Positions 7,307-35,357 are shown, numbered from the stretch's first letter. The stretch is DNA of 64,000 nt from an uncultured Verrucomicrobiae bacterium (GCA_963702845.1 OY969763.1:5216001-5280000); one strand, 5' to 3'. Notes: generated by a model from the sequence alone, not told the origin. Numbers and translations are program-made.

Positions 7307-7720
7307 CTAGCGTTTCTTGCCGCGTTTGGCGGCTTTGGCCGGGCGAGATGCTTTCGCAGCTTTGTCCGACTTGACGTTGGCGGCGCGCACGAGGGCGCGG
7401 AAGCCGCGCACGAGCGGTTCACGGACCATCGCCGGGATTTCGCGCAACTCTTCCACCAGATCGCGCTCCCACTGTTCAGGGAACGCCATGCGATGCGTGC
7501 GGCGGGCCTGGACGGAGTCCGGGTTATCGCGCAGCAAGAGCAGCTTGAAGAGACGCAGGGTGACCGCGCTGGGGCGGACGGGGGAGTTTTCGCGAACAAT
7601 CTGGCTGAGCGCGCTGGGCGTCATGCCTAATTGACGGGACGCTTCAGCCTGCGACCAACCGGACGCAGCGAGCAATTCACGGAACTCTTGTTTAGGATCG
7701 ATTTCAGTTTGTTGTGCCAT
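7307..7720 (-). CDS. XRE-family HTH transcriptional regulator (phage repressor-like)
   Basis: FRELLAASGWSQAEASRQLGMTPSALSQIV is a cro/C1-type HTH. It is divergent from a second HTH gene. Confidence 0.85.
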   Translation of the reverse strand: MAQQTEIDPKQEFRELLAASGWSQAEASRQLGMTPSALSQIVRENSPVRPSAVTLRLFKLLLLRDNPDSVQARRTHRMAFPEQWERDLVEELREIPAMVREPLVRGFRALVRAANVKSDKAAKASRPAKAAKRGKKR

Positions 7721-7752
7721 ATGTATTAAATGTTAAATGATTACACTTTCAG

Positions 7753-7781
7753 TTGACTAGTGAAGTAACTTACTGTAATAA
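7753..7781 (+). promoter_or_regulatory. Sigma70-type promoter in the AT-rich divergent switch region
   Basis: TTGACT-17 nt-TAATAA with a TG extension, overlapped by the palindromes agtaacttact and ttactgtaa (operator-like). Confidence 0.55.
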
Positions 7782-7831
7782 CTACAGAGAATAAAAAATA
7801 GGCACAGATTTGCAACACTAAAAGGACTGAT

Positions 7832-8245
7832 ATGAAGTCACATTATGAAATGACCGGCCGGGGAACGACCCGGCAAATGAGCGCAATTCGACCGGCGCGC
7901 TCGGCCACGCACACGATTAAACCAGCCGCTACGAGGGTGAATATGCCGTCCAGCGCAGCTTTGCGGGTGCCGGCGCTGGCGGCTTGCGGCGGGCTGGATG
8001 TTTGGATCACGCCCGCCCAGGCGCGCAAGATTCTTGGGATCGCCCCTTCGGCGATTTATCGGCTGGTGGACCCGACCCGGCCATTGCTCGTTGTGAAGCG
8101 GCCATTGCGCCGGAAGATTTTGATCAGCTTGCGATCGGTGACGGCATTTTCTGAAGCGACGAAAAACCCGGACTTCTGGGAATCGGCACCGTTGCAGGCG
8201 CAGTTTGACGCAAAACTAAAAGCAATCAGCGAACACAAAGGGTGA
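7832..8245 (+). CDS. Excisionase/MerR-like winged-HTH DNA-binding protein
   Basis: WITPAQARKILGIAPSAIYRLV followed by a beta-wing RRKILISLRSV. RBS-like aaagga upstream. Confidence 0.7.
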   Translation: MKSHYEMTGRGTTRQMSAIRPARSATHTIKPAATRVNMPSSAALRVPALAACGGLDVWITPAQARKILGIAPSAIYRLVDPTRPLLVVKRPLRRKILISLRSVTAFSEATKNPDFWESAPLQAQFDAKLKAISEHKG

Positions 8246-8352
8246 AGGCGTCGTAGGTCAGCCTGTTACAGGACGCGATTGACTGGTTGCGTCACGAAGG
8301 GACGGTTGAAAACACCGCACGTCCAGGTCAGCCGCCCCTTCGGGACTCATCA

Positions 8353-8582
8353 CATGGCGTAGCCATGTTTGAAGGTAGCCGTGGGTTTCAACCCACGGAA
8401 TCGCGCCCGAGCAAAACGTGTTGCGTCGCGTAGCGACGCTTCAACCTGTCCATTGGATTGTAATTATCGCGCGACGCATGAAACGCCGGTTCACGTGCCG
8501 CTAACGGCACAATCATCCTTCAGCCCGCCTCACCCGTGGGTTGAAACTCTCGGCTACCTTCAAGAATCGCTAACGCGATTCG
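8353..8582. repeat. REP-like repeat, family A, copy 2
   Basis: Same palindromes as 4978-5193. Confidence 0.85.
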
Positions 8583-8764
8583 CCTCTGGAACGGCGTGAC
8601 CAGATTCATCTTGACCGAAACCGAAGTGAGCGCAGACTCGAACTACTGTCAATTCAAACCACTGGGAGCACAAACCCGGCGAGAAAGGTCACATGGAAAA
8701 CACATCTCGAACACGGTTCTTCAGTAACTCTGCTATTTTTCAACACCACCCTCAAGCAAGTGTC

Positions 8765-9442
8765 ATGAAAACGGCTCTAGTGGCCTTCGTTCTATTTGTT
8801 GCGACGGCGGTGCACTCGTGCGCGCAAGGTTCGTTTCAAAATCTTTTTTTTGAGAATGCCACCATTGTTCCGGACGGATCTTCGCCCCATTTGATAAACG
8901 CTGATGCTGCTTTGCCGGGTTGGTCCGTTTCCTATGGTTCGGGCCCTGGTGGGGTCAACATTATCTATAATGACTTTAATTTGTCGTACGCTGCTGTTGG
9001 GCTTCACGACCCAAGTTCAACTATTACTCACCCATTACAGGGAAACTATTCCGTAATGCTTCAAAGTTCTCAGTATCCGTTTCCCGCCGATTCAGCTTCA
9101 ATTTCGCAGACAGGTCTGGTGCCGCTTGGAACGAAGTCCCTTGTCTTCATGGGGCAGGGTACTCCGGGCAATTTTCAAGTCTCCCTGGGAGGTCAGACAC
9201 TCAGTTTGACGCCTTTAAGCACCACGTCATCCTATACACTATGGGGGGCGGATATTTCATGGGCTGCAGGAACAACAGCGCCATTACAATTTACTGTTAA
9301 TGGGTCGCAATTTTCGACGCTGCTTCTGGACGGCATCCAGTTTTCAACCACGCCGGCACCTGAACCATCGGTCTTCGTCCTGCTTGCAGTCGGCGCAGGG
9401 CTGTTCAGGGTACGGCGTCAGCGGTCGCAATCAGTCCGGTAG
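8765..9442 (+). CDS. PEP-CTERM sorting-domain secreted protein
   Basis: Signal peptide MKTALVAFVLFVA and C-terminal APEPS + hydrophobic helix + RVRRQR. Confidence 0.9.
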   Translation: MKTALVAFVLFVATAVHSCAQGSFQNLFFENATIVPDGSSPHLINADAALPGWSVSYGSGPGGVNIIYNDFNLSYAAVGLHDPSSTITHPLQGNYSVMLQSSQYPFPADSASISQTGLVPLGTKSLVFMGQGTPGNFQVSLGGQTLSLTPLSTTSSYTLWGADISWAAGTTAPLQFTVNGSQFSTLLLDGIQFSTTPAPEPSVFVLLAVGAGLFRVRRQRSQSVR

Positions 9443-9496
9443 TCCGAGTCCGAGTCCGAGTCCGGTATTCTAAAGGAATACCGGACTACCGGACCG
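9433..9496. repeat. AGTCCG hexamer tandem array with an inverted arm (putative iteron/origin)
   Basis: agtccggt-agtccg-agtccg-agtccg-agtccggtattc-taaag-gaataccggact-accggaccgg, directly after the stop of the helicase gene. Confidence 0.6.
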
Positions 9497-9497
9497 G

Positions 9498-10982
9498 CTA
9501 TTCCGGAAATGCATTTTCGGAATTATCGGACTGGTTTTCCGATTCCTCGTAAAACCATTGACCTTCTAAGGTTTGCTTCAGATTTGGATGTTGCCGCGCT
9601 TCTTCCAAAACCGCGTAAAATTGTGTCTTGGAAATGCCTATTTCCGAACTGGCGATCATACACCACGTTTTCGTGCTGAGTTTCTGCCCTTTCAGACATC
9701 CAATGATCTTTTCCACTGTGAACCGCTTTTTCCGTCCGGGTTTTTGTTTCAATCGGCCTGTATTCAAATTCTCATCCCTCCGCATCAACGGATAAATCCA
9801 CCGCACCACAAACGCCTCGATCGGCTTGAAATTCCTCAACGTCGCTTCGACCGTGAACGCGTCCTCCGCTTCGTGGCGGGTGAAGCTCAGGATGCTGTCG
9901 GGGTCGCGCGCGAAGACGCCGCTGCCGCTGATGCGGTCGATCGCTTCTTTGCCGGCCGCGTTGCCTTTGGCGTAATGCGCGCCAAATGCCACCGCCGCTC
10001 CCGTCGACACCGCCAGATGCTCGATCGCGTTCAACAACATCGCCACCTGACCGGCGGAATTTTCGTCGGTGCCACCGTAACATTTGTAAATCGGGTCCAA
10101 GATAATCAGGGCGTAACTGGACGTTTTGATGCGCTCCAGAATCTTCGGGAACAACACGTCATAACTGGCCGCCTGCCCGCGCAGGTTCCACAAATCGACG
10201 TCGCCGGGCTTGAGCGTGATGTTCTTGGACTGGGCAATCGCGCGCATGCGCTTGTGAAATTCGTGCTCAGCCAGCTCGAAGTTGAGGTAAAGCACCTTCC
10301 CTTTGCCGGTCTTAAATGACAACCAGGGCTCGCCGCACGCCACGGACAGCGCGAGGTCGGTCAGCGTCCACGTCTTGAACGTCTTGGAGCCGCCGCCAAG
10401 CACCAGTTTGCTGCCCTGATGCAAAAGGCCATAGACGACCTCGCGCGGCGCGGGCTGTTCGGCTTTGAGAAAAGCGCAGGCGTCCTTGATTTCCGGCAGA
10501 CCTTTGCGGTTGTTGGTTAAGGCAATGGCCTGTTGCAAATCGCTCTGCAACGTGGCGAGCGGTTCGAGGAGATCGTGGGCGCGCGATTCGAGGCAGGCGG
10601 TTTGTTTGAGCAATTCGCGGCGGGCGCGCAACTCGTGCAGCTCCGCGACGTATTGCTCAAACATCAGAGCCGACCCATCCATGCCGATGATGTAACTAAA
10701 ACCGCCGACATCTTCCAGCATGCCCTCGGCCTTGAGCCGCTCGACCAGCGTCAAAGTGTCGGGCGCTTTGCCGTCTTTGACGAGCGCATGGATGGCGTTG
10801 AAAATGCGTTGGTGGCGAAGGTCGTAAAAAGAAAGGCGCGTGATGCCGAGCCGTTCGATCTGCGGGGCGAGGCCGGGCGAGGTGATGAGACACCCCAGCA
10901 CCTGCGCCTCGATCTCCACCGAGTGCGGCGGCAATCTGGGCGATTGCTCAGCCTTTTTTGCAGTAAATTCATTCGTTGTCAT
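9498..10982 (-). CDS. Phage/plasmid-type replicative helicase (DnaB N-terminal domain + AAA_25/RepA-like ATPase)
   Basis: PPHSVEIEAQVLG...FYDLRHQRIF matches DnaB-N. GGSKTFKT is the Walker A, IILDP the Walker B, plus AHYAKG and SGSGVFARDPD. Confidence 0.85.
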   Translation of the reverse strand: MTTNEFTAKKAEQSPRLPPHSVEIEAQVLGCLITSPGLAPQIERLGITRLSFYDLRHQRIFNAIHALVKDGKAPDTLTLVERLKAEGMLEDVGGFSYIIGMDGSALMFEQYVAELHELRARRELLKQTACLESRAHDLLEPLATLQSDLQQAIALTNNRKGLPEIKDACAFLKAEQPAPREVVYGLLHQGSKLVLGGGSKTFKTWTLTDLALSVACGEPWLSFKTGKGKVLYLNFELAEHEFHKRMRAIAQSKNITLKPGDVDLWNLRGQAASYDVLFPKILERIKTSSYALIILDPIYKCYGGTDENSAGQVAMLLNAIEHLAVSTGAAVAFGAHYAKGNAAGKEAIDRISGSGVFARDPDSILSFTRHEAEDAFTVEATLRNFKPIEAFVVRWIYPLMRRDENLNTGRLKQKPGRKKRFTVEKIIGCLKGQKLSTKTWCMIASSEIGISKTQFYAVLEEARQHPNLKQTLEGQWFYEESENQSDNSENAFPE

Positions 10983-11014: not shown

Positions 11015-11067
11015 CGTCAAAAACTGTAGGAAAAGGAGGGAAACCAGGGAAAGAAACAGCACTTTTT
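11015..11067 (-). promoter_or_regulatory. Shared phage-module promoter element, copy 1 (faces the helicase)
   Basis: Minus strand aaaaagtgctgtttctttccctggtttccctccttttcctacagtttTTGACG. Confidence 0.8.
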
Positions 11068-11570
11068 CCCGACAAAATGGGGTGGTTTTGTGCGGTTGGC
11101 ATGAATTTTGAGGGTGGGTTTTAGCCACAGATTGAACTGGCCGGTGGCGTGAATCACGACCTTGCGTGGGTGAACGCTATCAAGTCCTATCAGGTCATGC
11201 AGGTGGATTTGAGCTAACTCAAGAAGACAAGCGCCTGCAGGAACGGGTTGATGCCTTTCACAGCGCCGCAAATCCTCCCAAAGTTTCTCATTTTTGGTGT
11301 AGCGGTAATGAAAGCGATAGAGTTTCGGAACACCGAAGTTCGCTCTGACCGTCGACGAGATTTCGCTCCATGTCGAACAGGCCATACGACACAAGTGGTA
11401 AGTGTGAGATGCATGTGCGACTTACCCTGATTTTTCTTTACACCACTTTTCTCTATTCCTTCCGTAGCCGGACGTCGGCGTAACCAAAAAAGAAGCAATG
11501 ACCGGGACGTGTGTTCACGTGCCGCGCACCAGGCCTATGGAAGCGCACGCGCATGCCTTGTCGGAATGCC

Positions 11571-12704
11571 ATGAAAATAAATTTTTGCGTACTGGCCCTG
11601 CTCCTTTGCACCGTTGGCTGTAAAGGGAAGCACCGCGTTGCTACGCCGCCTCCGCCAATTGTGGAAGTCGCGCCCGTGACACAAGCCGACGTTCCGGTTT
11701 ATCACGATTGGATCGGCGTTATCGACGGGTTTGTGAATGCACGCATCCGAGCTCAAGTGCCGGGTTATTTGATTTCGCAGAATTATCGTGAAGGTGATCC
11801 AATCAAGAAAGGTGACGTTTTATTTGAAATAGACCGCAGGCCATTTCAAGCAACACTCGACCAAGCCAAGGGGCTTCTCGCGCAAGCCGAAGCAAAACTT
11901 GGCAAAACGGAACTCGACGTCAAACGCTATGCACCATTGCTCAAGGACAAGGCAATCAGCCGGGAGGAATACGATGACGCGGTCCAGGCCAATCTCGAAG
12001 CACAGGCAGCGGTCGCGTCAGCGAAAGCAGCAGTCGAGCAGGCGCAAGTGAATCTGGGGTTTACGCGCATCGAATCTCCAATCGATGGAATTGCGAGTAT
12101 TGCAAATGGACAAATCGGCGATTTGGTCGGGCCCAACACGACTGATTTGACGACGGTCTCAACAGTCGACCCAATCAAAGTCTATTACAACGTTACTGAG
12201 CAGGCTTATATCAATTTCACGAAGCTTTTCACCAGCGAGAGCAATAGATACGAGAGACTGCGAAAACTGGAAATCGAACTTCTTTTGGCCGATGGCTCTG
12301 TTTACCCGTTGAAGGGCAGAATCTATGCGGTTGATCGTCAAGTCAGCCCCACCACCGGAGCGCTTCGAATAGCCGCACTTTTCCCGAATCCTAATTACGC
12401 TTTGCGTCCCGGCCAATTCGGTCGTGTTCGGGTGAAATTCGAGCTTGCGAGCGGCGCACTACTGGTGCCGCAAAAGGCGGTCTCGGAATTGCAAGGCGCT
12501 TTCCAGGTGGCGGTATTGAATTCAAATAACACCGTGCACATCCAGCCGGTCCATCTTGGCGAACGCGTGGGCACACAGTGGATCGTGAAGGACGGAGTGC
12601 ATTTGGGCGATCGCGTCATTGTTGAAGGAACACAGAAAGTGCGTGAAGGCTCGGCCGTTACTGTGACAAACGCGCCGGCTCAGCTTAATTCCGCACCCCA
12701 TTGA
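11571..12704 (+). CDS. RND efflux periplasmic adaptor (MFP) lipoprotein
   Basis: Lipobox TVGC and the motifs IRAQVPGYL, IESPIDG, LRPGQFGRV and LLVPQKAV. Confidence 0.92.
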   Translation: MKINFCVLALLLCTVGCKGKHRVATPPPPIVEVAPVTQADVPVYHDWIGVIDGFVNARIRAQVPGYLISQNYREGDPIKKGDVLFEIDRRPFQATLDQAKGLLAQAEAKLGKTELDVKRYAPLLKDKAISREEYDDAVQANLEAQAAVASAKAAVEQAQVNLGFTRIESPIDGIASIANGQIGDLVGPNTTDLTTVSTVDPIKVYYNVTEQAYINFTKLFTSESNRYERLRKLEIELLLADGSVYPLKGRIYAVDRQVSPTTGALRIAALFPNPNYALRPGQFGRVRVKFELASGALLVPQKAVSELQGAFQVAVLNSNNTVHIQPVHLGERVGTQWIVKDGVHLGDRVIVEGTQKVREGSAVTVTNAPAQLNSAPH

Positions 12705-12709
12705 TCCGA

Positions 12710-15700
12710 ATGTCCAAATTCTTCATCAATCGACCAATCGTTGCCATCGTGATCTCAATCATCATGGTTGTCGTTGGGCTTGTTACTCTTTTCGGATTGC
12801 CAGTGGCGCAGTTCCCGAAGGTTGTTCCGCCGGAAATTTTTATCCAGGCAAACTACGTCGGCGCAGATGCGGAGACTATCGAGCAGTCGGTCGCGACACC
12901 CATCGAGCAGCAGATGAGCGGCGTCGACAACATGAATTACATGTATTCGATCAACGCGAACAACGGGTTGATGCGGATGTTCGTCAATTTTGACCTCAAG
13001 ACAGATCCGAACATTGACCACGTTCTACACAGCTGCGCTACGCCCAGGCCGAATCGCAATTGCCTGCAGACGTGCGCAATTTTGGTGTCACGGTCCAGAA
13101 GTCTCTTTCCGCGCCACTCATGCTGGTTGCGCTTAATTCTCCGAATCAAACACGCGACGCGCAGTTCCTGGCCAACTACGCGTATATCAATCTTTCCGAT
13201 CCTCTAAGCCGTCTGCCTGGCATCTCTCAAGTGCAAATATTCGGTGCGGGCCAATATGCGATGCGTATTTGGGTGAAGCCGGATCAGTTGTCGAAGTTAA
13301 ACATAACCGTTCCGGAAATCATCAGTGCAGTTGGAAGTCAGAACACGGTGAATCCCGCCGGCAAACTTGGTGGACGTCCGTCTCCACCAGGTCAGCAGTT
13401 TACGTATTCCGTGCGCGCGCAAGGCCGCCTCGTTACAGAGGAGGATTTCGGCAACATCGTGGTGCGAGCGACTGCTGACGGGGCAATTGTTCGGGTGAAG
13501 GACGTAGCGCGCATAGAACTTGGAGCCGCAGATTACGATATTTATGGTCGTTATAATAGGAAACCGAGCGCGGTTCTCGCGCTGTATCAATTACCAGGAT
13601 CAAATGCCATCGAGGCGGCCAAAGGCGTCGAGCGGCTGATGGCTGAATTGAAAGAACGATTCCCATCCGATCTCGATTATCAAATCTCGATTGATACGAC
13701 CCAGGAAGTCACAGAAGGCATTCGGGAAATCGGCGTAACTTTTTGGGAAGCGCTCGCACTCGTCATGGTGGTTGTTTTCATTTTTCTGCAAGGCTGGCGC
13801 GCGGCACTTATTCCTCTGGCGGCTGTTCCGGTGTCGTTGATAGGAACGTTTGCGGTTTTTCCGATATTGGGATTCTCGATCAATACCTTGTCTCTGTTCG
13901 GCCTGGTTCTCGCGATCGGATTGGTGGTTGACGACGCGATCGTTGTTGTTGAAGCCGTCGAGCATCACATCGAAGAGGGCATGTCGCCGAAGCAAGCCAC
14001 CTTGAAAGCAATGGAGGAAGTTTCAGGCCCTGTCGTTGCGATTGCTCTTATTCTCTCCGCCGTGTTCCTTCCAACGGTATTCATCCCCGGCATTACGGGG
14101 CGGTTGTATCAGCAGTTTGCGGTTACCACTGCTATATCGGTGCTGATTTCTGCGTTCAATGCATTGTCATTGAGTCCGGCTCTGGCGGCGTTGCTGTTGA
14201 AGCCCAAGCGTGAAAGCAAGGGGCCAATCGGCAAATTCTTCGACCTGTTTAATCGTGGGTATCGTAAGGTTACTGACGGCTACATTGGGCTTTGCCGTGT
14301 CCTCATTCACAAATCTGTCTTCGCTCTTCTGTTTCTCGGAATCATTGCAGCAGCCACGGGTTTGTTTGGCAAAAAGCTGCCTACAGGATTTCTGCCCGAA
14401 GAAGATCACGGATACTTGTATGTTAACGTGCAGCTTCCGTTCGCTGCTTCATTGGACCGCACAGTGGACGTTTGCAATCAGGTTGAAACAATAGTTCTCG
14501 CTATTCCCGGCGTAAAAAGTTGCACGACTGTGGCAGGGTTCAGTCTTTTAAGTTTTTCACGCAATACCTACAGCGCGTCATTGTGGATCGCATTGAAAGA
14601 CTGGAATGAACGAAAGACTGCGGCGGAAAGTTACGAATCTATCAAAGCCACCCTGACCAAAAAATTGTCTCAAGTTCCGGGCGCGATCGCGTTTGCGTTT
14701 CCACCTCCAGCCATTCAAGGCGTTGGCACAGCCGGCGGGTTCACATTTGTTTTGGAAGATCGGTCGGGCAAAGACATTCCGTTTCTTGCCGCTAACGTCT
14801 CAAAGTTCATGGAAGCGGCACGAAAGCGTCCGGAAATCGCGAGCATCACAACCACCTTTCTTCCTGTCGTGCCGCAACTTTACGTGGATGTTGACCGAGA
14901 CAAGACGCTGAAACAAGGCGTCGAACTGACCGAGGTCTATAAGACGCTGCAGACATTTATGGGCGGCTATTTCGTCGATTATTTCAATCGTTTCGGCCGC
15001 CAGTGGCAGGTCTACATCGAGGCCGAAGGTGACTATCGCACACGCGCTGAAAACCTGGGTTTATTTTACGTCCGCAATCACGCTGGTGAAGCTGTTCCTC
15101 TCGCGGCACTCACATCAACCAAGACCATCTCCGGACCAGAATTTACAATGCGCTACAATCTTTATCGAAGTGCACAGATTAATGGTTCCTCTGCGCCGGG
15201 CTACAGCTCCGCGCAGGCAACGAAGGCCCTCGAGGAAGTGTTCGCCCAGACGATGCCACCCGAAATGGGTTTTGATTACCTTGGCATATCGTTCCAGGAG
15301 CAAAAGGCCCAGCAAGGAGTCTCGCCCGTCGCGATCTTCGGTCTCTCATTTTTCTTCGTCTTTCTGATTCTGGCCGCACTTTATGAAAGTTGGAGTTTAC
15401 CGTTCAGCGTCCTGCTGGGCACGCCTATCGCTGTGTTCGGTGCGTTTGCGGCGCTGTGGATTCGTGGAATGGTGAACGACGTCTTTGCGCAGATCGGATT
15501 GGTAATGTTGATCGGCCTGGCTGCCAAGAACGCCATCCTCATCGTCGAATTCGCACGGCTGGAATACGAAAAAGGCCAGCCGCTGATCGATAGCGCACTT
15601 ACTGCGGCGCGAATTCGTTTGCGCCCCATTCTGATGACTTCTTTTGCCTTCATTCTCGGAACTGTTCCCCTTTCGATCGCAACCGGGGCTGGTGGAGTGT

Positions 15701-15888
15701 CGCGGCGTGTTATCGGCACAGTGGTAATCGGAGGCATGTTGGCCGCGACTTTAATCGCCGTCTGTTTGATTCCCGTGACGTTTTATGTAGTGGAAAAATT
15801 TTCGAGTCGTTTCAAACGCACGACCACAAGTGACTCGGAACGACCATCGGACGGAGGAGTAACACCTTCAGTGGGAACTAATGAATGA
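12710..15888 (+). CDS. RND efflux permease (AcrB/HAE1 family), frameshifted near 13027
   Basis: MSKFFINRP start, GLVVDDAIVVVE, AKNAILIVEF and RLRPILMTS. The reading continues DHVL then TQLRYAQAESQLP in another frame, so one base is missing. Confidence 0.9.
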
Positions 15889-23835: not shown

Positions 23836-23998
23836 GTGTAGCAATTTAATACAAACTCCCCCACGTGCATGAAGCACCTGTCGCCCCCCGCCGTGAGGAG
23901 GCACTGAATGAAGAAAATTCGAAGCACGAAGCTCGAAATTCGAAACTTGGAAGAAGCCTCCTCACGACGGCGGCACAGAAACCGAAAGAACAAAAGAT

Positions 23999-24733: not shown

Positions 24734-24750
24734 GCCTGAACCATCAACCC

Positions 24751-24888: not shown

Positions 24889-24926
24889 AAACAGAACCGA
24901 ACCAAAAACAAAGAAAGAAGAAAAAT

Positions 24927-27563: not shown

Positions 27564-27597
27564 GCGATTGCCCACGTGCCGAACGGCTTCTCAGTTG

Positions 27598-28533: not shown

Positions 28534-28592
28534 CGGGATCTGATCATGGCTACGTCATGGACCAAAACGTGCGCCACAAACCCTTCCCTTAC

Positions 28593-28943
28593 TTACTGAA
28601 CTTTAAGTTCGCTTCTTTGCCCGTCTTGCGTCGTCACCCATGCCTTGGAGAGATGCCATTCGGACAGCTTGCTGCCTTTGACGAAGTGATAGGTGTAACA
28701 GGACGGATCATCGCCTCTCATCACAAAAATATTCCGCGTGCAGGGATAAGTGATACGGTCGAACATCTGCGAGCCTTCCATGTGAATGTCACCACCTTCA
28801 CCAGGAGGCAACCCCGGCAGTTTACCGGCATCCTCCATCTCCACAAAAACCCGCGCTAAATCTTTTTGGACATTATTTGTGGCACATGAAACAAAGAGCC
28901 AACAGGTCGCTAATACGAATACGGTCTGAATTGTTCTACGCAT
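28593..28943 (-). CDS. Hypothetical lipoprotein
   Basis: Signal peptide ending FVSC. Confidence 0.6.
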   Translation of the reverse strand: MRRTIQTVFVLATCWLFVSCATNNVQKDLARVFVEMEDAGKLPGLPPGEGGDIHMEGSQMFDRITYPCTRNIFVMRGDDPSCYTYHFVKGSKLSEWHLSKAWVTTQDGQRSELKVQ

Positions 28944-29087
28944 AAGAAATCGTTTACCTCGTTTGGACTATCCAACCACCGAGCTTAACACTAGCGATAC
29001 CAACAAACAATCCCTCAGCTGGCTAAAACCTGCCTTTTAGCCACTCAAGAACCATGCCACCCGTCTGAAAACGCCACATTTCGTCAT

Positions 29088-29141
29088 AAAAAGGTGCTGT
29101 TTCTTTCCCTGGCTTCCCTCCTTTCCCTACATTTTTTGACG
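29088..29141 (+). promoter_or_regulatory. Shared phage-module promoter element, copy 3 (faces connector-portal-TerL)
   Basis: aaaaaggtgctgtttctttccctggcttccctcctttccctacattttTTGACG. Confidence 0.8.
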
Positions 29142-29258
29142 GAGTAGTCGCTTCTTGTCAGCATCGCAGCGTGACGGCAAAGAGCCGGCCTGGCGGCTGG
29201 GCTTTGAAAAACACGCCGATTGGCATCCGTCCGCAATTTGAAAACGAAAGAGCTACTT

Positions 29259-29837
29259 ATGCTGACTCAATTATCCACTGTAAAAACCCGCCTCAACGTC
29301 ACCGACACAAGCTTCGACGGCCCCCTGGCCAACGCCATCGCTGGTTTCAGCGAACGGTTTGAGCGCGAGTGCAATCGCAAATTCGCCCGCCAGGTCAATG
29401 CCATCGAAGAATTCTCCGCCGACCAAATCGAGATCTGTCCCGTCTCGTGGCCGATCGAATCGGTCGGGTCGTTCGATTTGAAAACGAAGGAAAGCGACGG
29501 ATGGCAACCGGTCACGCCGACGCCGGATTATTTGATTCGGAGCAATTGCGTGATTTCGCTGGAGACCGCCACCGGCTCGCGCTTCCAACAGGCGCGCGTC
29601 ACTTACACTGGCGGTTACGTGCTTCCGGGAACGACGCCGGGCACGGGGCAAACGCCGTTGCCGAGTGACCTCGAGCAGGCGTGCGTCGAACAAGTCGTTT
29701 ACTGGTATCAAAACCGCACGACCCTGGGCTTTCTCACTGCAACCGTCGGTCCCGGCACGCATCTCGTTCAAGGCGATTTGCTGCCGGGCGTCGCCGCTGT
29801 CCTCCAGAAATACACCCGCATCAGTTTTGACCAATAA
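29259..29837 (+). CDS. Phage head-tail connector / head completion protein (gp6-like)
   Basis: LTQLSTVKTRL...FERECNRKF...VTYTGGY...LPSDLEQACVEQV..WY...VAAVLQKY. Confidence 0.8.
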   Translation: MLTQLSTVKTRLNVTDTSFDGPLANAIAGFSERFERECNRKFARQVNAIEEFSADQIEICPVSWPIESVGSFDLKTKESDGWQPVTPTPDYLIRSNCVISLETATGSRFQQARVTYTGGYVLPGTTPGTGQTPLPSDLEQACVEQVVYWYQNRTTLGFLTATVGPGTHLVQGDLLPGVAAVLQKYTRISFDQ

Positions 29838-29845
29838 ACCAAATC

Positions 29846-29922
29846 GTAGCAGCCGAGGTTACGAGGCTCTGACGTCTGAGCGAATCGACGCGGAAGTTAG
29901 AGCCTCCTCACATCGGCGCTAC
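29846..29922. repeat. REP-like inverted repeat (related copy at about 23883-23975)
   Basis: gtagcagccgaggttacgaggctc ... gagcctcctcacatcggcgctac. Confidence 0.7.
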
Positions 29923-29948
29923 AACAACACAAAGAAAGAAAAAATATT

Positions 29949-31751
29949 ATGAAAATTGAAATTCCCTCACTCACAAAATGGTTGGGCAAAAAGTCCCAAA
30001 CGAAAAAGCGCACCGGCGGCTGGACCATCGAAGAATGGCGGCGCGGGGATGACCTCGATCATCCACAAACACGATTCGTCATGCCTTACGCTCAATCGGC
30101 GTGGGTTTACGTGGCGGTGAGCGTGCTCGCGGAAACCGTCGCGCACATTCCGTTTCGCTTTTCGCGCGGACGGCCCAAAGGCGAGGAACTGGTCGAAACC
30201 GGCCCACTGGTGGAACTGTTTCGTCAACCCGCCAGCGGCATCACCCGCACGTTATTTTGGCAAACGCTGGTTTCCTGGGAAGCGTTGCGCGGCGAGTTTT
30301 TCATCGTGCCGCTGGATACTGCTGGCCGCGTGTTGCGTCCGGGTCGCGGCATGTTGCCGAAGCAATTGATGACGCTCAACCCCGATCACATGCAAGAAAT
30401 CGTGCGCAAGAACGAATTGGTCGGCTGGCGTTGCACCGCGCCGGAAGGCTCGTCGCCGATGGGCGCGCTATTGCTCTTGCCGGAAGAGGTCATTCATTCG
30501 CGCAGTTTCAATCCGTATCTCTATTGGCGTGGCATGTCGCCGTTGTCGGTGGCGATGATGGCGGCGGAATCCGATTTCGCAGCGGCTCAGTTCATGAAGG
30601 CGGTGATGGAAAACAACGGTGAGTCCGGCTTGATTGTCACGAGCAGCACCGACCTGCGCGACGATCAAAAGGCGCAAATCCTCGCGCAACTGAGCGCTCG
30701 CCGACGCAACAACACCGCATTGAACAAACCGCTCTTGCTCAACGGCAATTTCACCGTGCAAAAGCCGATGTTGTCCAGCGCCGACATGCAGTTCCTGGAC
30801 AATCGCCGCATGAACCGCGAGGAGATCGGCGCGATCTACAAAGTGCCGGAATCGATGATGGGTTTTGGCGATGAAAAGAGCGGCTTGAGCGCAGGCACGG
30901 CCATGCAGCAGGACCGCTTGAACTTCATCGAGAACACGATCACCGGTTTGCGCCGCCGATTGGAATCGGCACTGGAACCGATCATCCAAAGTTTCGACCC
31001 CGAGTTGCACGGATGGTTCGACATCGAGTCGTTGCCCATCATGCAAACGGCGCGTCGCGATCGTTTGGTCAGTGCTGAGAAGGCGTTCGGGATGGGCGTT
31101 CCCTTCAACGAAATCAACGAATTGTTCGGTCTCGGTTTTCGGCCGATGCCGTGGGGCGGCAAAGGTTTCGTGAATACGAACCTCGTTGAACTCGGTGATC
31201 TCCCCGGAGTGCGGAGTGCGAGGCCGGCGTCCGGCTCCACGTCCGCAGCAAGGTCGTCTGCAACCAGCGCTCCCGGATTATTGAAGAACCCAGAACTCGC
31301 TGTGGGCCGCATGCTCCAACTCGTGGATCAAACAACTCCGAAGGAGTTGCAGCCTTCAGCCCAGGGTTGTCTCGCGCCAAGCGAGACTACCCTGGGTAAC
31401 AAACCCAAAATGTTCGACAACCCTGAAAGGGTTGCGGCAACGAAAGCCCAACAACCAAAGCTTCGCCGGTTCCTCTTCGAACAACGCAATCGGGCGTTGG
31501 CGCAACTGGAACAGGAATTCGGTTTCCTGCACGTGCGCTTTCAACACGGTGAAGAGATTGATCCATTGCTCAACATCGAACGCGAAAACGAATTCCTCTT
31601 CGAACGCCTCGGCCTGGCCGATGGACTTCTCGTCGAAGCAAACGAAAAGCGTTTGTGTGAACTCAACGACGTCGTCCGCAAAGGCCTTGAGGCCGATGAA
31701 GACTTCGCCGAAGTGGCCAACCGCGTGAAACGGATTTTCACCAACAACTAA
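29949..31751 (+). CDS. Phage portal protein (HK97-like) with C-terminal extension
   Basis: WVYVAVSVLAETVAHIPF, LRGEFF, EVIHSRSFNP...GMSPL, DMQFLDNRR..REEIGAIYKVP and PFNEI. Confidence 0.92.
   Translation: MKIEIPSLTKWLGKKSQTKKRTGGWTIEEWRRGDDLDHPQTRFVMPYAQSAWVYVAVSVLAETVAHIPFRFSRGRPKGEELVETGPLVELFRQPASGITRTLFWQTLVSWEALRGEFFIVPLDTAGRVLRPGRGMLPKQLMTLNPDHMQEIVRKNELVGWRCTAPEGSSPMGALLLLPEEVIHSRSFNPYLYWRGMSPLSVAMMAAESDFAAAQFMKAVMENNGESGLIVTSSTDLRDDQKAQILAQLSARRRNNTALNKPLLLNGNFTVQKPMLSSADMQFLDNRRMNREEIGAIYKVPESMMGFGDEKSGLSAGTAMQQDRLNFIENTITGLRRRLESALEPIIQSFDPELHGWFDIESLPIMQTARRDRLVSAEKAFGMGVPFNEINELFGLGFRPMPWGGKGFVNTNLVELGDLPGVRSARPASGSTSAARSSATSAPGLLKNPELAVGRMLQLVDQTTPKELQPSAQGCLAPSETTLGNKPKMFDNPERVAATKAQQPKLRRFLFEQRNRALAQLEQEFGFLHVRFQHGEEIDPLLNIERENEFLFERLGLADGLLVEANEKRLCELNDVVRKGLEADEDFAEVANRVKRIFTNN
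31333..31435. repeat. REP-like palindromic element inside the portal coding sequence
   Basis: Hairpins caactccgaaggagttg, cccagggttg..ctaccctggg and caaccctgaaagggttg. Confidence 0.7.
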
Positions 31752-31802
31752 CCACGAGGCACGAGACCACGCCTCGCAACAAAAGAAAGAACAAACGAAA
31801 GT

Positions 31803-33251
31803 ATGAACAATAAAAGAGAAACATTCATCGGGCGGGCCAAGATTGTGCCCGCGTGCAGCGATCATTTTTTGCTGCCGTATCAATACAAATGGGCCACCGA
31901 CTACGCGCGCTTAAAGCTCGCCGTCAAGGCACGCCAAATCGGCTGGACCTGGACGGAAGCGTATTCGCTCGTGCGCCGCAAAGCGCAGAACGGCGCAACC
32001 GGCGACGTCTGGATTTCCAGTCGCGACGAAACGCAGGCAAAGCTGGTTGTCGAAGATTGCCGGAATTTTGCCAACGTGCTGGACGTCGGCGCGCGTGCTT
32101 TTAGCGAACTCGTTTTTGACGCAGCTAATTCCAGCGCGTAGACGATCGAGTTCGCCAATAACACGCGCATTCACTCGATGTCATCGAATCCCGACGCGCT
32201 AGCCGGCAAACGCGGCGATCGCGTCCTGGACGAGTTCGCGCTCCACCCGGACCCGCGCAAATTGTATTCCATCGCCTATCCCGGCATCACGTGGGGTGGG
32301 AGCCTGGAAATCTTTTCGACGCATCGCGGCACGGACAATTATTTCAACGTGCTCATCAACGAGATTTTGCACGGCGGAAATCCGAAAGGGTTCAGTTTCC
32401 ACCGTACCACGTTGCAGGACGCGCTCGACCAGGGGTTCTTGCACAAACTGCAAATGAACTTGCCACCGGAGGATCCGCGCCAGCAAATGGACGAAGCCGA
32501 TTACTTCAACTTCATCCGCGCCGGTTGTCCCGACGAGGAGACGTTTCAACAGGAGTATATGTGCGTGCCCGGCGATGATGCCTCGGCGTTCTTGTCGTAT
32601 GACCTGATTGGGTCGTGTGAAGGGCCGGAGCCTGCGCCAATCACGGACAGCTCCGAACTTTACGTGGGAGTCGATATCGGACGTGAGCGCGACCTGACGG
32701 TGATTTGGGTCCTGGAAAAACTCGGGGACGTTTTTTACACGCAATTCGTGCATGTGATGAATTGCGAAACGTTCGATGCCCAGGAAAGCGCGCTCTATGC
32801 GTTGCTCGAAGATCGGCAGGTGAAACGCTGTTGCATCGACCAAACCGGCATCGGCCGCCAATTCGCCGAACGCGCGCAAAAGCGGTTTGGGAAATACCGG
32901 ATCGAAGGGATCAGCTTCACGAGCGCCGTGAAAGAGGAACTCGCGTATCCGGTGCGCTCGGCGTTCGAATCGCGGGCATTACGAATTCCCGTCGACCCGA
33001 AAATCCGCGCCGATTTGCGGGCGATCAAAAAGGAAATCACTGCGAGCGGCAACATCCGCTTCACCGCCGATCGCGGTGAAAACGGTCACTCGGACCGCTT
33101 CTGGGCCTTAACCCTGGCCTTGCACGCCGGCAGCCGCCCACCAAGCAGCGGGCCCATCGGCGCATGTGGCGTAAACAATGTCCTGAAGGGGCGATTGGCA
33201 TCATCAATCACCCCTTCAGGACATCCTCTTTACAAGAGCCGACTTCGGTAG
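31803..33251 (+). CDS. Terminase large subunit (Mu gp28-like), interrupted by an in-frame TAG at 32139-32141
   Basis: LLPYQ, KARQIGWT (Walker A), VLDEFA (Walker B), STHRG, GVDIGR, IDQTGIG and HSDRFWA. The two ORF halves are in the same frame (32178-31803=375). Confidence 0.9.
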
Positions 33252-33268
33252 CAATCTGACGAATATCT

Positions 33269-33652
33269 ATGAGTAACGTTCCGGGTGATTTGAAATTCGC
33301 CAAAAGCCACGAATGGGTCCGCTTGAATGGAGATATCGCGACGGTCGGTATCAGCGACCACGCGCAGCATGAATTGACCGACGTGGTGTTCGCCGAGGTG
33401 CCGCAGGTCGGGCGCAAAGTGAAGGCCGGCGAGGCGACGGCAGTGGTGGAATCGGTGAAGACGGCGAGCGATGTTTATTCGCCGGTCAGCGGAGAGATCG
33501 TGGAAGCGAACGCTGAGTTGACCTCAAATCCGGAACTGGTGAACAAGGAACCTTACGGTAAAGGTTGGTTTTTCAAGGTAAAGCTGTCGAACCCATCGGA
33601 ACTGAATTCGTTGATGGATGCGACAGCTTATACCAAGCAGATTTCAGGCTAA
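33269..33652 (+). CDS. gcvH: Glycine cleavage system H protein
   Basis: [17 protein letters not shown] (lipoyl Lys), SPVSG and PYGKGW. Confidence 0.97.
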
Positions 33653-34045
33653 TCACAGCCTTGCCATTGCGGCTTCGATCTGGCGCAAGGTTTCCGGGGT
33701 GAGGCCTTTCTTGGCTTCGGGTTTTTCCAAAGCTTCCTGGACCTTCTGCTTTTGCGCGGTGACGTTTTCTTTGTACATCGCCAACTCGAGTTCGACCTTG
33801 AGCCGTTTGGTTCGTTCGCTCGTTTGCTCGAGGATTGTGCGGGCAAGCTCGAGGTATTCTTTCTGATTCTGGATATTCGTCTTCAACTTGCTCAAATCGA
33901 ACGATTCGAGCAGGTCGTTGATTTGATGGGCGAGCAACGTTTCGTTTAACGCGTTGGCGTCGATTTTGTGTTTTGTTTCCAGCTCGCGCGCCCAGTCGAG
34001 GGCCGCGCGGCTGCGGTTTTGTTTTGTTTCAGTTTCGGTGTTCAT
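33653..34045 (-). CDS. Helical phage protein resembling Mu gp27/DUF3486 (candidate small terminase subunit)
   Basis: All-helical, with C-terminal KKGLTPETLRQIE. It is the last gene of the lysis-like operon, next to a Mu-type TerL. Confidence 0.5.
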   Translation of the reverse strand: MNTETETKQNRSRAALDWARELETKHKIDANALNETLLAHQINDLLESFDLSKLKTNIQNQKEYLELARTILEQTSERTKRLKVELELAMYKENVTAQKQKVQEALEKPEAKKGLTPETLRQIEAAMARL

Positions 34046-34052
34046 AGTGGTC

Positions 34053-34373
34053 CTATTCGTTTGAGATTTTGCCGCGGATATAGGCGACGTCTTCGGCCAC
34101 GCGATTTATTTTTTCGTATAAATCGGCGAGGCTGCGGGCGCGTTCGATGGTGAATTCGCGGAAGCGTTCGTCCATTTCGCCCCGCAACAGTTCGTGCCGA
34201 CGCTCGCAATCGGCGGAAAGCCGCTTGATGTCGTCGGTGATGATTTGGTTTTTGCCGAAGAGTTTTCGGCAACGTGCAGTAACTTCGAGGGCGAGATAGC
34301 TTACGGCTAGCGCGCCGGTGAGGCCCAGGAGCCAGTTGGCGGTGATGGGCCAAGGGATGTTTTCGGGTGTCAT
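34053..34373 (-). CDS. Small phage-type membrane protein (TM + coiled coil)
   Basis: NWLLGLTGALAVSYLAL then a coiled coil ending KINRVAEDVAYIRGKI. Start at 34373, after a REP. Confidence 0.6.
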   Translation of the reverse strand: MTPENIPWPITANWLLGLTGALAVSYLALEVTARCRKLFGKNQIITDDIKRLSADCERRHELLRGEMDERFREFTIERARSLADLYEKINRVAEDVAYIRGKISNE

Positions 34374-34452
34374 AATTAGTTTTCTAGTGTTCAGATTTTT
34401 CGGAGTGCGGGCGTCTCGCGCTGCGGACGTGGACGTCCGCACTCCGGAAGTT

Positions 34453-34690
34453 TCATTTTTGTAGTTCTTCAATCCGGTCGGCCACGGCTTTGCGATAGCG
34501 TTGGTATTTCGCCATTGGGCATAAACACGCCGTCGGCCGGCACGTGGAGGACCTGGTTTGATTTCACGAATGTTTCAGTTTGGTCGGCGCTGATCACCAC
34601 TACTCGTGGCGCGTTGCAGGCGGTCGAGCTCATCCAGATCGCTGTTGCTGTGCAGAGCAGCAGCGTTGGAATTTTGCGTGGCGATGTCGC
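34453..34690 (-). CDS. Putative o-spanin-like lipoprotein (one extra base near 34511)
   Basis: RKIPTLLLCTATAIWMSSTA-C (Cys at 34618-34616) NAPRVVVISAD..., continuing KYQRYRKAVADRIEELQK* in the adjacent frame. Not in the ORF track. Confidence 0.45.
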
Positions 34691-34818
34691 GGTCGATTTT
34701 GTTCATAACGGTTTTTGTTTTGTATTCGTGGATCGTTGGTTTGCGCGTCGCGCCGTTTCAGGAACCAAAAAATGATTCCCAAAACGAGCGACACGAGGCT
34801 GATGATCGCGGTTGTCAT
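34575..34818 (-). CDS. Putative i-spanin-like protein (one extra A near 34697-34700)
   Basis: N-terminal TM MTTAIISLVSLVLGIIFWFLKRR. The helical tail IDRDIATQN...DLDELDRLQRA continues in the adjacent frame and overlaps the lipoprotein signal. Confidence 0.45.
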
Positions 34819-35132
34819 TCCTTTGGTTCGGGTTTGATGCCGAGGGTCGGCAGTTTGATTGAGCCAATGAAATCAAGGCCGAAGCTCAACCACTTATAGA
34901 CCGGGCCGGTTTCGAAGTGTTGCAGGCGACCGTATTCCTCGGGCGAGCAGTTGGCTTTGATGTAGCTATCGAGCAGCGCCATGACGGGCTTGAAGAGGAC
35001 ACGCAGCGCGCCGATGACGAGCAGCGAAGTCGCAAGCCAGGGATAGTGCTGGGCGAGGTTGATGAAGAAGCCGGCGATGCCTGAGTCGGCGAGCGACGCG
35101 GGGTCGGCGGTGATTTGGGCCAGTAGTTTCAT
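34815..35132 (-). CDS. Holin-like small membrane protein
   Basis: 105 aa with hydrophobic segment PWLATSLLVIGALRVLFKPV and a charged C-terminus. It is the first gene after motif copy 4. Confidence 0.5.
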   Translation of the reverse strand: MKLLAQITADPASLADSGIAGFFINLAQHYPWLATSLLVIGALRVLFKPVMALLDSYIKANCSPEEYGRLQHFETGPVYKWLSFGLDFIGSIKLPTLGIKPEPKE

Positions 35133-35245
35133 ATGTTTTGATCTCCGAAAGACGGCGGCCGTTTTGGCTGGACTGAATCCGACATCCGGTTTTCGTGGGC
35201 CGGAGGTTGCCGTCACGAAATGGTTTTACCGTGTAACCGCTACTT

Positions 35246-35297
35246 GTGCAAAAACTGTAGGGAAAGGAGGGAAACCAGGGAAAGAAACAGCACTTTT
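35246..35297 (-). promoter_or_regulatory. Shared phage-module promoter element, copy 4 (faces the lysis-like operon)
   Basis: Minus strand aaaagtgctgtttctttccctggtttccctcctttccctacagtttTTGCAC. Confidence 0.8.
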
Positions 35298-35357
35298 ATA
35301 TGACAAAAAGCGGTGTTTTTAGGCTGGTGGCATGGTTCTTGAGTGATTGGAAGGCTG

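Follow-up and report, generated by a model that had tools for sequence, protein, structure and literature searches.

Introduction

Gene transfer agents (GTAs) of the RcGTA type, described in Rhodobacter capsulatus and Caulobacter, are built on phage-derived head and packaging genes that are fixed in the chromosome, and GTA genes evolve slowly. The GTA of Bartonella (BaGTA) comes with a run-off replication locus. Bobay and colleagues reportedly found defective prophages of enterobacteria that are domesticated, or 'grounded', and under purifying selection. Capsid-forming phage satellites (cf-PICI) have, by the definition given in PMC10085698, a hijacking module of TerS, TerL, portal, protease, capsid and adaptor genes without a tail. 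As set out in PMC6854486, the proposed GTA-type TerS is one without a specific DNA-binding domain, and gp1 of RcGTA is described likewise as a TerS without the N-terminal region.

We analysed 64,000 nucleotides from an uncultured Verrucomicrobiae bacterium (GCA_963702845.1 OY969763.1:5216001-5280000; this whole stretch is the window, and the genome is G000). A preliminary description had proposed a GTA-like system of five dispersed phage modules separated by host genes, four of them under one promoter element. Judged from its genes alone, the head and packaging part appears to be a selection-maintained, tail-less set in a soil-type member of the Verrucomicrobiales, GTA-like in logic.

Results

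The head and packaging genes form one block

Pfam or PHROG family matches were obtained for all of the head and packaging genes, and the phage-derived identity of the protease, HK97 capsid, adaptor, portal, TerL and short TerS genes is real. These genes are not widely dispersed: they lie, together with gcvH, in one 11.6-kb block at 23.7-35.4 kb, in which a 2.3-kb insert and gcvH are the only interruptions. Only the helicase is set apart from the block by the RND pump, rmuC, ridA and kinase genes. Genes were called with a home-made codon scorer, and the features of the block are as follows.

23749-23841, + strand: upstream element, copy 2, pointing at the protease-capsid operon (repeat families D3/I3/I5; one of 33 genome copies)
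23999-24733, + strand: prohead serine protease, S78 (PF04586, E 7.4e-7; phrog_80, 9.6e-18; dN/dS 0.11 against L113)
24927-26174, + strand: HK97-fold major capsid protein (PF05065, 5.1e-26; dN/dS 0.06-0.13; codon score in the 99th percentile)
26649-28533, + strand: 2.3-kb insert with SRPBCC-like and GH32/43-like ORFs (weak Pfam matches; outside the phage set)
28593-28943, - strand: small lipoprotein-like ORF, o28593, conserved with the block (signal-peptide-like N-terminus; 57% identity at the same place in G002; dN/dS 0.19)
29020-29147, + strand: upstream element, copy 3, pointing at adaptor-portal-TerL (repeats D3/I1/I2)
29220-29837, + strand: head-tail adaptor, gp6-like (PF05135, 3.8e-8; phrog_442, 3e-15; dN/dS 0.16)
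29949-31751, + strand: portal protein, 600 aa (PF04860, 5.9e-46; 78% identity over the full length in G002; dN/dS 0.18)
31803-33251, + strand: large terminase, TerL, with an in-frame TAG (Terminase_6C, 1.5e-22; phrog_2 on both pieces; dN/dS 0.12-0.17)
33269-33652, + strand: gcvH, a host housekeeping gene within the block (PF01597, 6e-47; 92% identity at the same position in G002)
33653-34045, - strand: short small-terminase homologue without the N-terminal region, TerS' (alignment with phrog_426/Mu gp27-like TerS; dN/dS 0.24)
34053-34373, - strand: o34053, candidate lysis or release protein with a coiled coil and a single membrane helix (predicted membrane segment; 91% identity in G002; dN/dS 0.08)
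34815-35216, - strand: small single-helix membrane protein, encoded first after element copy 4 (predicted membrane segment)
35240-35367, - strand: upstream element, copy 4, an inverted repeat of copy 3 (I1, 128 nt, 84% complementary to 29020-29147)

The capsid gene is the sole PF05065 gene of the genome (a single own-genome match), and gcvH is likewise single-copy (one tblastn match). No family match was found for o28593. In G002 and G001 no such insert separates capsid from adaptor, and in the metagenome contig L113 HMGL and nuoA take its place. Homologues of o34053 lie upstream of TerS in the phages L135 and L153, and 34815-35216 has a weak homologue in the phage-like contig L152. Atlas matches, which were taken as leads only, were also recorded for o34053 and for 34815-35216, the latter to viral hypothetical proteins. 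A holin/spanin/gp27-like module had been suggested here; gp27-like was right for 33653-34045, the short TerS, while the sole basis for holin or spanin at 34053-34373 and 34815-35216 is one predicted membrane helix each. The REP-like repeats reported between the genes are genuine, with 23 BLAST matches genome-wide.

The block is conserved and under purifying selection

Synteny, tree congruence and dN/dS below 1, which had been proposed as checks, were each assessed in related genomes. The order protease-capsid-o28593-element-adaptor-portal-TerL-gcvH-TerS'-o34053 is identical in the same-genus genome G002, with gcvH in place, and the capsid-adaptor-portal order is also found in G001. In L113 the order rmuC-ridA-znrib-RR-element-protease-capsid is as here, and the block is then broken otherwise, HMGL and nuoA following the capsid gene. 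Against G002, dN/dS was 0.10 for capsid, 0.18 for portal, 0.16 for adaptor, 0.12-0.17 for TerL, 0.24 for TerS' and 0.08 for o34053 at dS of 0.6-1.2, and 0.07 at dS 0.54 for gcvH; against L113 it was 0.06 for capsid and 0.11 for protease, with 0.06 and 0.03 for the host genes rmuC and ridA, respectively. The block values (0.06-0.24 at dS 0.6-1.2) thus resemble those of neighbouring host genes; they are pairwise estimates in which dS above 1 is close to saturation, and dN/dS below 1 is expected of an active mobile element too.

Codon usage was host-like (score percentiles: capsid 99, TerS' 97, protease 90, adaptor 88). The capsid tree agreed with the genus and family labels: G000, G001, G002 and L113 grouped together (SH-aLRT 99) and, joined by G003 and G007, made up a six-row clade (SH-aLRT 100), the end branches of host-embedded capsids were 0.02-0.16 long against a median of 0.28, and the tree's other half held the tailed-phage relatives. 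The synteny shared with G002, G001 and L113, dN/dS and this tree indicate a block that is fixed, vertically inherited and under purifying selection, as a GTA would be. The distribution was patchy, with the capsid in 11 of the 41 genomes searched (6 of 24 in the family) and the portal in 13 of 41.

Defective prophage debris without present function, which would owe its intact look to slow decay or recent acquisition and whose TerL would already be breaking, is an improbable explanation. The patchy distribution, a gene order scrambled relative to phage relatives, the loss of tail, lysis, integration and replication modules, the TAG in TerL, a TAA within the capsid gene of G003 and TGA codons interrupting some TerL and portal copies of G001 and G034 are what such debris would display. 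Neutral sequence so diverged would, however, be full of stops, and the nine genes compared (dN/dS and dS as above) have a single one, the TAG, and no frameshift in G000, G002 or L113; relaxed selection with accumulating stops was not found. Codon usage at or above the host median, the short branches of the host-embedded capsid clade and the conservation of the upstream element at two positions also speak against debris.

The large terminase is interrupted and the small terminase is short

The TAG at 32139-32141 splits TerL, the reading frame being the same on both sides, whereas a GTA is expected to have all of its essential genes intact. In G002 the aligned residue is Tyr and TerL is intact over the assembled parts. 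Since several housekeeping genes (acrB, lepA, lepB and a kinase) are also split in this assembly, the TAG could be a base-call error. An intact TerL paralogue elsewhere in the genome may substitute, or the system may just have been lost here. Five TerL paralogues are 50-67% identical to the block TerL, and the TerS/TerL family of the genome is large (13 TerS-like and 8 TerL loci).

TerS' aligned with the C-terminal ~125 residues of phrog_426/Mu gp27-like TerS proteins, and the conserved N-terminal ~65-85 residues of phage TerS and lone-pair TerS are absent from it. The N-terminal region was found in all five full-length relatives aligned and was missing from TerS' and its G002 and G007 orthologues, so that 33653-34045 is of the GTA type of TerS. 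A TerS' homologue stands immediately before TerL in G007 and G031.

The upstream element is host-wide

An element of ~95-128 nt occurs at 11015-11112, 23749-23841, 29020-29147 and 35240-35367, each copy aimed at a phage-like gene. That much of the suggested common promoter element stood. Its dedication to the phage modules did not: the element has 33 copies genome-wide, of which the four here lie within 24.4 kb, and many stand before host genes. In 30 of the 33 copies the element had the orientation of the gene that it precedes, and a phage-derived gene followed in 8 of the 33; among the ORFs downstream of out-of-window copies, 19 of 29 belonged to ordinary cellular Pfam families (ParB, aconitase, ATP synthase, RF, ThiG, Acs). 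A counterpart of copy 2 is present at the same place in L113 (81% identity), and a diverged one of copy 3 in G002 (71%). The stretch scanned for consensus sigma-70 sites held three of the four copies, 2-4, and no such site was called at any of them. An element that stands before many housekeeping genes fits poorly with tightly repressed, lethal particle production.

Tail genes are found in a related phage

The 67 window ORFs scanned gave no match to an integrase, transposase, tail, tape-measure or endolysin family, as the preliminary description had stated, and no lysis enzyme was found. Its further question, whether tail genes lie elsewhere in the genome, was addressed by Pfam searches and by tblastn of the tail ORFs of relatives, and none was detected. 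The own-genome Pfam searches gave one capsid and two portals and no sheath, PhageMin_Tail, head-closure, Baseplate_J or Phage_tail_2 match; the control was uninformative for one of the genome-wide tail and head-closure searches. The complete particle set of a GTA, with a tail or delivery structure and lysis, was thus not found. Since tail, head-closure protein and lysis enzyme were all searched for without success, no route by which DNA would be delivered or released is known.

In the distant relatives L153 and L135 the genes stand in the canonical order TerS-TerL-portal-protease-capsid-adaptor. Downstream of the adaptor, L153 carries Neck1, tail terminator, tail protein and tape measure genes with PHROG support; the ORFs after the adaptor of L135 had no family match. 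From three such contigs, 14 of 47 ORFs matched G000 by tblastn, all of them TerS, TerL, portal, protease, capsid, adaptor or o34053-like, and the ORFs downstream of the adaptor gave no match. The TerL of L135 is ~65-70% identical to that of the window over tblastn segments. Elsewhere in the genome, at 1.732-1.741 Mb, lies another head-only module (portal, scaffold, capsid, adaptor), unrelated to this one.

These relatives could be the helpers of a capsid-forming phage satellite of the cf-PICI kind, still mobile or recently immobilised, which would make its own heads, package itself and take tails and perhaps lysis from an L135/L153-type siphophage. We consider this unlikely. The block has the six head-only components of the cf-PICI definition (PMC10085698), its size is ~9-12 kb, a selected adaptor is most sensible if tails attach, related tailed phages occur in metagenomes and head-only sets recur in this genome. 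A cf-PICI is also expected to have an integrase and a defined att site and a linked regulator and primase-replicase, and to have no holin. No integrase or excisionase family was found in the window ORFs, the only long flanking repeats are those of the 33-copy element, the helicase lies 13 kb away and is not co-inherited, and the XRE/HTH pair is elsewhere in G002. There is one connector-type gene, a second connector or HNH gene not having been found, and the two small membrane proteins could be holin-like. The block encloses the one gcvH gene of the genome, its sub-operons run on opposite strands, it is broken variously in L113, G007 and G037, the short TerS is without the region expected to recognise its own pac site, and dS is of the same order as that of flanking host genes.

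Selection in the absence of tails, the large TerS/TerL family and an element of a promoter type common to constitutive host genes would also suit a domesticated head and packaging machine with a non-transfer role, for example to capture or break down incoming phage DNA (decoy capsids, terminase) or to export DNA into a matrix. Defence genes or sensors were not seen beside the block, no precedent can be named and the idea is purely inferential, and we regard it as highly unlikely.

Membership of the helicase and the XRE/HTH pair is not supported

Two further loci upstream of the block had been counted as modules.

7307-7720, - strand: XRE gene of a divergent pair (HTH_3, 5.4e-6)
7832-8245, + strand: HTH-like gene of the same pair (HTH_17, 0.003, below cut-off)
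9498-10982, - strand: DnaB_N and AAA_25 helicase, primase-like (AAA_25, 2.4e-31; phrog_2597, 3.2e-57)
11015-11112, - strand: upstream element, copy 1, aimed at the helicase (repeats D2/I2/I3)

Orthologues of the helicase were found only in G001 (63%) and G003 (41%), with neighbours not shared. The HTH-like gene has poor codon usage and a match under the Pfam cut-off, yet it is conserved in G002 (58%), where the pair, with XRE at 86%, adjoins a sigma-54 activator. On present evidence neither the helicase nor the XRE/HTH pair belongs to the system, and the run-off replication analogy with BaGTA is therefore not supported either.

Discussion

What the sequences show is which genes are present, their synteny, the selection on them and a lack of detectable tail homologues. 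The domestication proposed in the preliminary description is supported for the head and packaging block, in view of the shared order in G002, dN/dS, host-like codons, the capsid tree, the missing tail homologues and the TerS type; a dedicated regulator or promoter and the membership of the helicase and the XRE/HTH pair are not supported.

With RcGTA-type GTAs the block shares chromosomally fixed phage-derived head and packaging genes, vertical inheritance, purifying selection, host-like codon usage, the lack of an integrase, a capsid evolving more slowly than its phage relatives and, on the description in PMC6854486, a TerS without the N-terminal DNA-binding region. It differs in that tail, head-closure, tail-fibre and endolysin genes were not detected in the genome, GafA- or CtrA-type dedicated control was not identified, the genes are scrambled over both strands and enclose a host gene, the host belongs to another phylum and TerL is interrupted. 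GTA particles carry random host DNA, too little to encode the system, and transfer it; packaging of random DNA by the block would be a prediction. The cf-PICI as modelled in SatelliteFinder share the tail-less head set and the ~10-kb size, whereas, by the part of that model set out in PMC10085698, the block departs from them in having no integrase, AlpA-type regulator or linked primase-replicase, one connector-type gene, no HNH, a truncated TerS, an essential-looking host gene inside, no defined att site and varied breaks in relatives. Like the 'grounded' enterobacterial prophages, it has lost some modules while others are selected and inherited vertically; unlike them, it keeps a complete head-plus-terminase set, with a GTA-type TerS and expanded lone TerS-TerL pairs. 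BaGTA was likened to it as a multi-locus phage-derived system, but the helicase here is neither co-inherited nor syntenic with the head block.

Our preferred reading, held tentatively and at a little under an even chance, is that the block may be the head-and-packaging half of an old siphophage, fixed and vertically inherited in the genus, with rearranged copies in two sister genera, under purifying selection and with packaging without a tail as the proposed mechanism. Expression, assembly, packaging and any transfer are what we infer from the genes. Three sub-operons (protease-capsid; adaptor-portal-TerL; two small membrane proteins with the short TerS) would each be read from their own copy of the host-wide, orientation-specific element. 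Protease, capsid and portal would build procapsids, TerL and a TerS without the N-terminal DNA-recognition region would load DNA largely irrespective of its sequence, a mode that has been proposed for RcGTA, and the adaptor would cap the portal. Because no tail is encoded, the heads would be released tail-less or finished with the tails of an infecting phage. The host may still make DNA-filled capsids, one key gene, TerL, being interrupted in the present genome. That interruption, the tail and lysis genes that were looked for and not found, the stops in copies of some relatives and the patchy distribution speak against a GTA that works in this host.

A bolder extension, which we think quite unlikely, is that the block might make the capsids used in common by a DNA-packaging system that is distributed over the genome and run by the host. 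One capsid/portal/adaptor set and the non-specific short TerS would work with TerS-TerL pairs that stand alone among housekeeping genes, at least seven of which are intact and full-length. Several of these units stand behind the same species-specific element. Each pair would start headful packaging of its own chromosomal neighbourhood, with tails borrowed or heads tail-less. If true, this would be a multi-origin, lateral-transduction-like gene transfer agent in Verrucomicrobiota.

Results

Gene content of the window

The source genome (G000) is a single contig of 6.03 Mb, of which the window is G000:C1:5216001-5280000. Its relatives in the searched collections are MAGs whose titles read Verrucomicrobiales or Verrucomicrobiota. 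Pfam and PHROG scans took in 67 window ORFs, and gene calls beyond the ORF lists of the tools were made with our own codon-score caller. The features were as follows.

7307-7720 (-), XRE regulator (Pfam/PHROG scan)
7832-8245, HTH_17-like ORF, sub-threshold
9498-10982 (-), DnaB_N and AAA_25 helicase (Pfam/PHROG scan)
Window, PEP-CTERM-like ORF
Window, RND pump, with AcrB in two ORFs
Window, rmuC, ridA, hybrid kinase, zinc-ribbon protein (znrib) and response regulator (RR)
23999-24733, S78 prohead protease
24927-26174, HK97 capsid
Between capsid and adaptor, 2.3-kb stretch with SRPBCC-like and GH32/43-like ORFs
28593-28943 (-), small lipoprotein-like ORF (o28593)
29220-29837, gp6-like adaptor
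29949-31751, portal
31803-33251, TerL
After TerL, gcvH
33653-35216 (-), three small ORFs

In line with the preliminary description, the 67 ORFs gave no match to an integrase, transposase, tail, tape-measure or endolysin family. The only gcvH copy of G000 lies inside the head block, which spans 23.7-35.4 kb. For the two small membrane proteins (34053-34373 and 34815-35216), Atlas look-ups led only to clusters without names, most of them viral, and to a single "Mu-like releasin" lead below threshold. A search of sequencing runs gave none of RNA and just four of DNA, whose shares are small (0.07-0.08).

REP-like palindromic repeats of one family occur at 4973-5191, 8348-8581 and 22967-23079, with 23 BLAST matches genome-wide. 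A tRNA and Acido-Lenti-1 at 8353-8398 were the sole Rfam matches at the gathering threshold, and this REP-like copy barely reaches the score for Acido-Lenti-1 RNA (37.7 vs 37 bits). The protease-capsid spacer (24734-24926) forms very stable nested hairpins of palindromic repeats (-78.7 kcal/mol, z -7.1). Since the hairpin set is missing in the close metagenome contig L113, whose spacer is 110 nt, it is probably an inserted repeat and not a conserved regulator.

The head block across relatives

In the same-genus genome G002, two abutting contigs carry protease, capsid, o28593 (-), the upstream element described below, adaptor, portal, TerL, gcvH, the short small terminase gene TerS' (33653-34045, -, in the window), o34053 (34053-34373, -, in the window) and o34515, which is the window order minus the 2.3-kb insert. 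G001 retains capsid-adaptor-portal. In L113, whose capsid is 93% identical to that of the window, rmuC, ridA, znrib, RR, the element, protease and capsid are followed by HMGL and nuoA. The hybrid histidine kinase gene and its preceding ORF (19307-22215) are missing there between ridA and znrib, and we take this region beside the head block to be a recent insertion or deletion.

Farther away the set is broken up. In G007, of another genus, a kinase and a lipase flank protease-capsid-adaptor, a different contig carries TerS'-TerL, and a portal lies by itself beside hemA and hemC; in G037, of another family, a protease-capsid-X-adaptor group, a portal and a TerL are each found singly among cellular genes. 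The capsid turned up in 11, the portal in 13 and window-type TerL in 24 of the 41 searched genomes, TerL being present in 20 of the 24 genomes of the family; the MAG contigs of these relatives are short and the kinship labels are those of the tool. A search for insertion boundaries in seven relatives, by way of the neighbours znrib and EEP, found none. Dispersal is partly a property of these genomes, because plain host genes such as znrib also lose their synteny outside the genus.

Origin and tail search

Distant relatives with capsids 40-57% identical to that of the window show the canonical order of esterase, o34053-like gene, 86-aa gene, TerS, TerL, portal(-MuF), protease, capsid and adaptor, and in the tailed-phage-like contig L153, Neck1, tail terminator, tail protein and tape measure come next after the adaptor. 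They look like siphophages. For three such contigs, 14 of 47 ORFs had a tblastn match in G000, all of them TerS, TerL, portal, protease, capsid, adaptor or o34053-like, and none of the ORFs past the adaptor matched. A Pfam search of the whole of G000 found one HK97 capsid and two portals, and no sheath, PhageMin_Tail, head-closure, Baseplate_J or Phage_tail_2; these tail-family negatives are without PF06841, for which the control search matched nowhere. The head block could also be a cf-PICI-like satellite, now immobilised and dependent on borrowed tails (cf-PICI as defined in PMC10085698), a reading that we consider unlikely.

dN/dS, codon usage and capsid tree

Pairwise NG86 dN/dS against G002 was 0.10 for capsid, 0.18 for portal, 0.16 for adaptor, 0.12-0.17 for TerL, 0.24 for TerS', 0.08 for o34053, 0.19 for o28593 and 0.07 for gcvH, at dS of 0.54-1.9 over the compared block genes, where pairwise values >1 are near saturation. 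Against L113, the block genes capsid (0.06) and protease (0.11) were compared together with the host neighbours rmuC (0.06), ridA (0.03), znrib (0.07) and RR (0.07). In codon usage, the percentile among 1479 reference ORFs is 99 for capsid, 97 for TerS', 90 for protease and 88 for adaptor.

In a capsid tree of 38 sequences (quick maximum-likelihood search, midpoint rooting), G000, G001, G002 and L113 group together (SH-aLRT 99), nested in a clade with G003 and G007 (100). Their end branches measure 0.02-0.16, compared with a median length of 0.28. Contigs with tail genes fall in the opposite half of the tree, and both G037 with G031 and G034 alone are lineages apart.

TerL is one reading frame broken by a TAG at 32139-32141, aligned to Tyr in G002. 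AcrB, LepA (lepA), signal peptidase (lepB) and a histidine kinase are each in two adjacent ORFs (window 12701-15888; L029:4820-7011; L030:14724-15574), which points to assembly indels or to numerous recent pseudogenes. Because these genes are also split, an assembly error is possible for the TerL stop codon. The interrupted TerL would suit a head block that is inert debris, and the low dN/dS of its genes speaks for maintenance; we regard debris as improbable.

Short small terminase and lone terminase pairs

TerS' and its G002 and G007 orthologues align to the C-terminal ~125 residues of phrog_426/Mu gp27-like TerS, without the conserved N-terminal region present in phage TerS and lone-pair TerS proteins. 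The gene lies directly upstream of TerL in G007 and G031. In this TerS' resembles RcGTA gp1, which is reported to be without the N-terminal DNA-binding domain, a loss proposed as the mark of GTA-type TerS (PMC6854486).

G000 has eight TerL loci. The seven outside the window are intact (472-594 aa), each with a TerS-like gene upstream and one also with a portal:

L009, about 2.18 Mb, lone TerS-TerL pair
L029, about 2.30 Mb, lone TerS-TerL pair
L030, about 2.60 Mb, lone TerS-TerL pair
L031, about 2.76 Mb, lone TerS-TerL pair
L032, about 3.50 Mb, lone TerS-TerL pair
L034/L013, about 4.75 Mb, lone TerS-TerL pair
L035, about 5.84 Mb, lone TerS-TerL pair

The pairs are embedded among purH, hom/thrC, a biotin-synthase-like gene, hsp70, argS, folD and similar genes. 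Their TerL is 50-67% identical to that of the window in five and about 24% in two, and TerS-like sequences occur at 13 loci of G000. G000 also has another head-only module, unrelated to the head block, at G000:C1:1732000-1741300 (L176:10453-19249). It consists of a phrog_145 portal, a scaffold, a phrog_247 major head protein and an Ad1 adaptor, and no tail genes were seen over the following 20 kb.

The 33-copy upstream element

The preliminary description had proposed a promoter element shared by four phage modules. The four window copies, at 11015-11112 (-), 23749-23841 (+), 29020-29147 (+) and 35240-35367 (-), are real and each faces a phage-like gene, but the element is not dedicated to them, as BLAST and a motif scan found 33 copies in G000. 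Among the 29 ORFs downstream of out-of-window copies, 20 have a Pfam family, 19 of these ordinary cellular (ParB, aconitase, ATP synthase, release factor, ThiG, acetyl-CoA synthetase, sulfite/nitrite reductase and others), and four are small-terminase genes; together with the window copies, phage-derived genes thus follow 8 of the 33. Three of the seven lone pairs are preceded by the element. Four copies inside 24.4 kb compare with ~0.13 expected by our arithmetic.

The 29-nt core, with <=3 mismatches, had 26 matches in G000 and none in 24 relatives. With BLAST, nothing beyond diverged copies came up, in L113 and G002, and these keep the same two positions. The element has the orientation of the next called gene in 30 of the 33 copies, and the idea of a randomly inserted MITE was rejected on this ground. 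Its behaviour is that of an orientation-specific, species-homogenised upstream element, and we infer that it is a promoter. Its 3' end can be read as a TTGAC-type -35 box with weak -10 boxes, an assignment kept putative since a consensus promoter scan of 22900-35500 gave no sigma-70 site at copies 2-4 (copy 1, 11015-11112, lies beyond the scanned stretch). The 95-nt element had no Rfam match at the gathering threshold.

The sigma-54 -24/-12 pattern is GGCAC, five bases and TTGC. In one subfamily (for example, the copies near 2.41, 2.98 and 4.39 Mb), the distal end fits this pattern on the opposite strand by our alignment reading, and the element may exert control in both directions. Adaptor-portal-TerL-gcvH-TerS' is flanked by copies 3 and 4 (29020-29147 vs 35240-35367) as inverted repeats of 128 nt that are 84% complementary, and protease-capsid by copies 2 and 3 (23749-23841 vs 29020-29147) as direct repeats. 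Recombination between copies could explain the differing module arrangement in L113 and other relatives.

The helicase and the XRE/HTH pair had been counted as members of the system, a membership that the comparison with relatives does not support. Helicase orthologues occur only in G001 (63%) and G003 (41%), and the window neighbours do not co-occur with them; matches in the other 38 genomes are via the DnaB N-terminal domain only, or are weaker paralogues. The helicase was thus rejected as a replication module. The divergent XRE/HTH pair is conserved in G002, where it adjoins a sigma-54 activator. The sole apparent tie of either to the head block is one copy of the 33-copy element.

Discussion

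Our leading, still tentative reading is that the head block is a chromosomally fixed, selection-maintained, tail-less head-and-packaging set, GTA-like in its logic and no more than a candidate for particle formation, with its own TerL interrupted here. Another domesticated use of the same maintained genes seems to us a distinctly remote prospect. Characterised GTAs are few. Among the titles and abstracts retrieved on GTAs or prophages in Verrucomicrobia, none describes one for this phylum.

If true, phage domestication would reach the PVC group in the form of a head-only, chromosomally fixed and selection-maintained packaging set that carries a GTA-type TerS, and this would raise the question of what use a capsid and terminase have without a tail. 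The head block also connects with an unusual expansion of lone terminase pairs in the family. If it is merely a slowly dying remnant, it would be a clean example of head genes long outliving the rest of a prophage.
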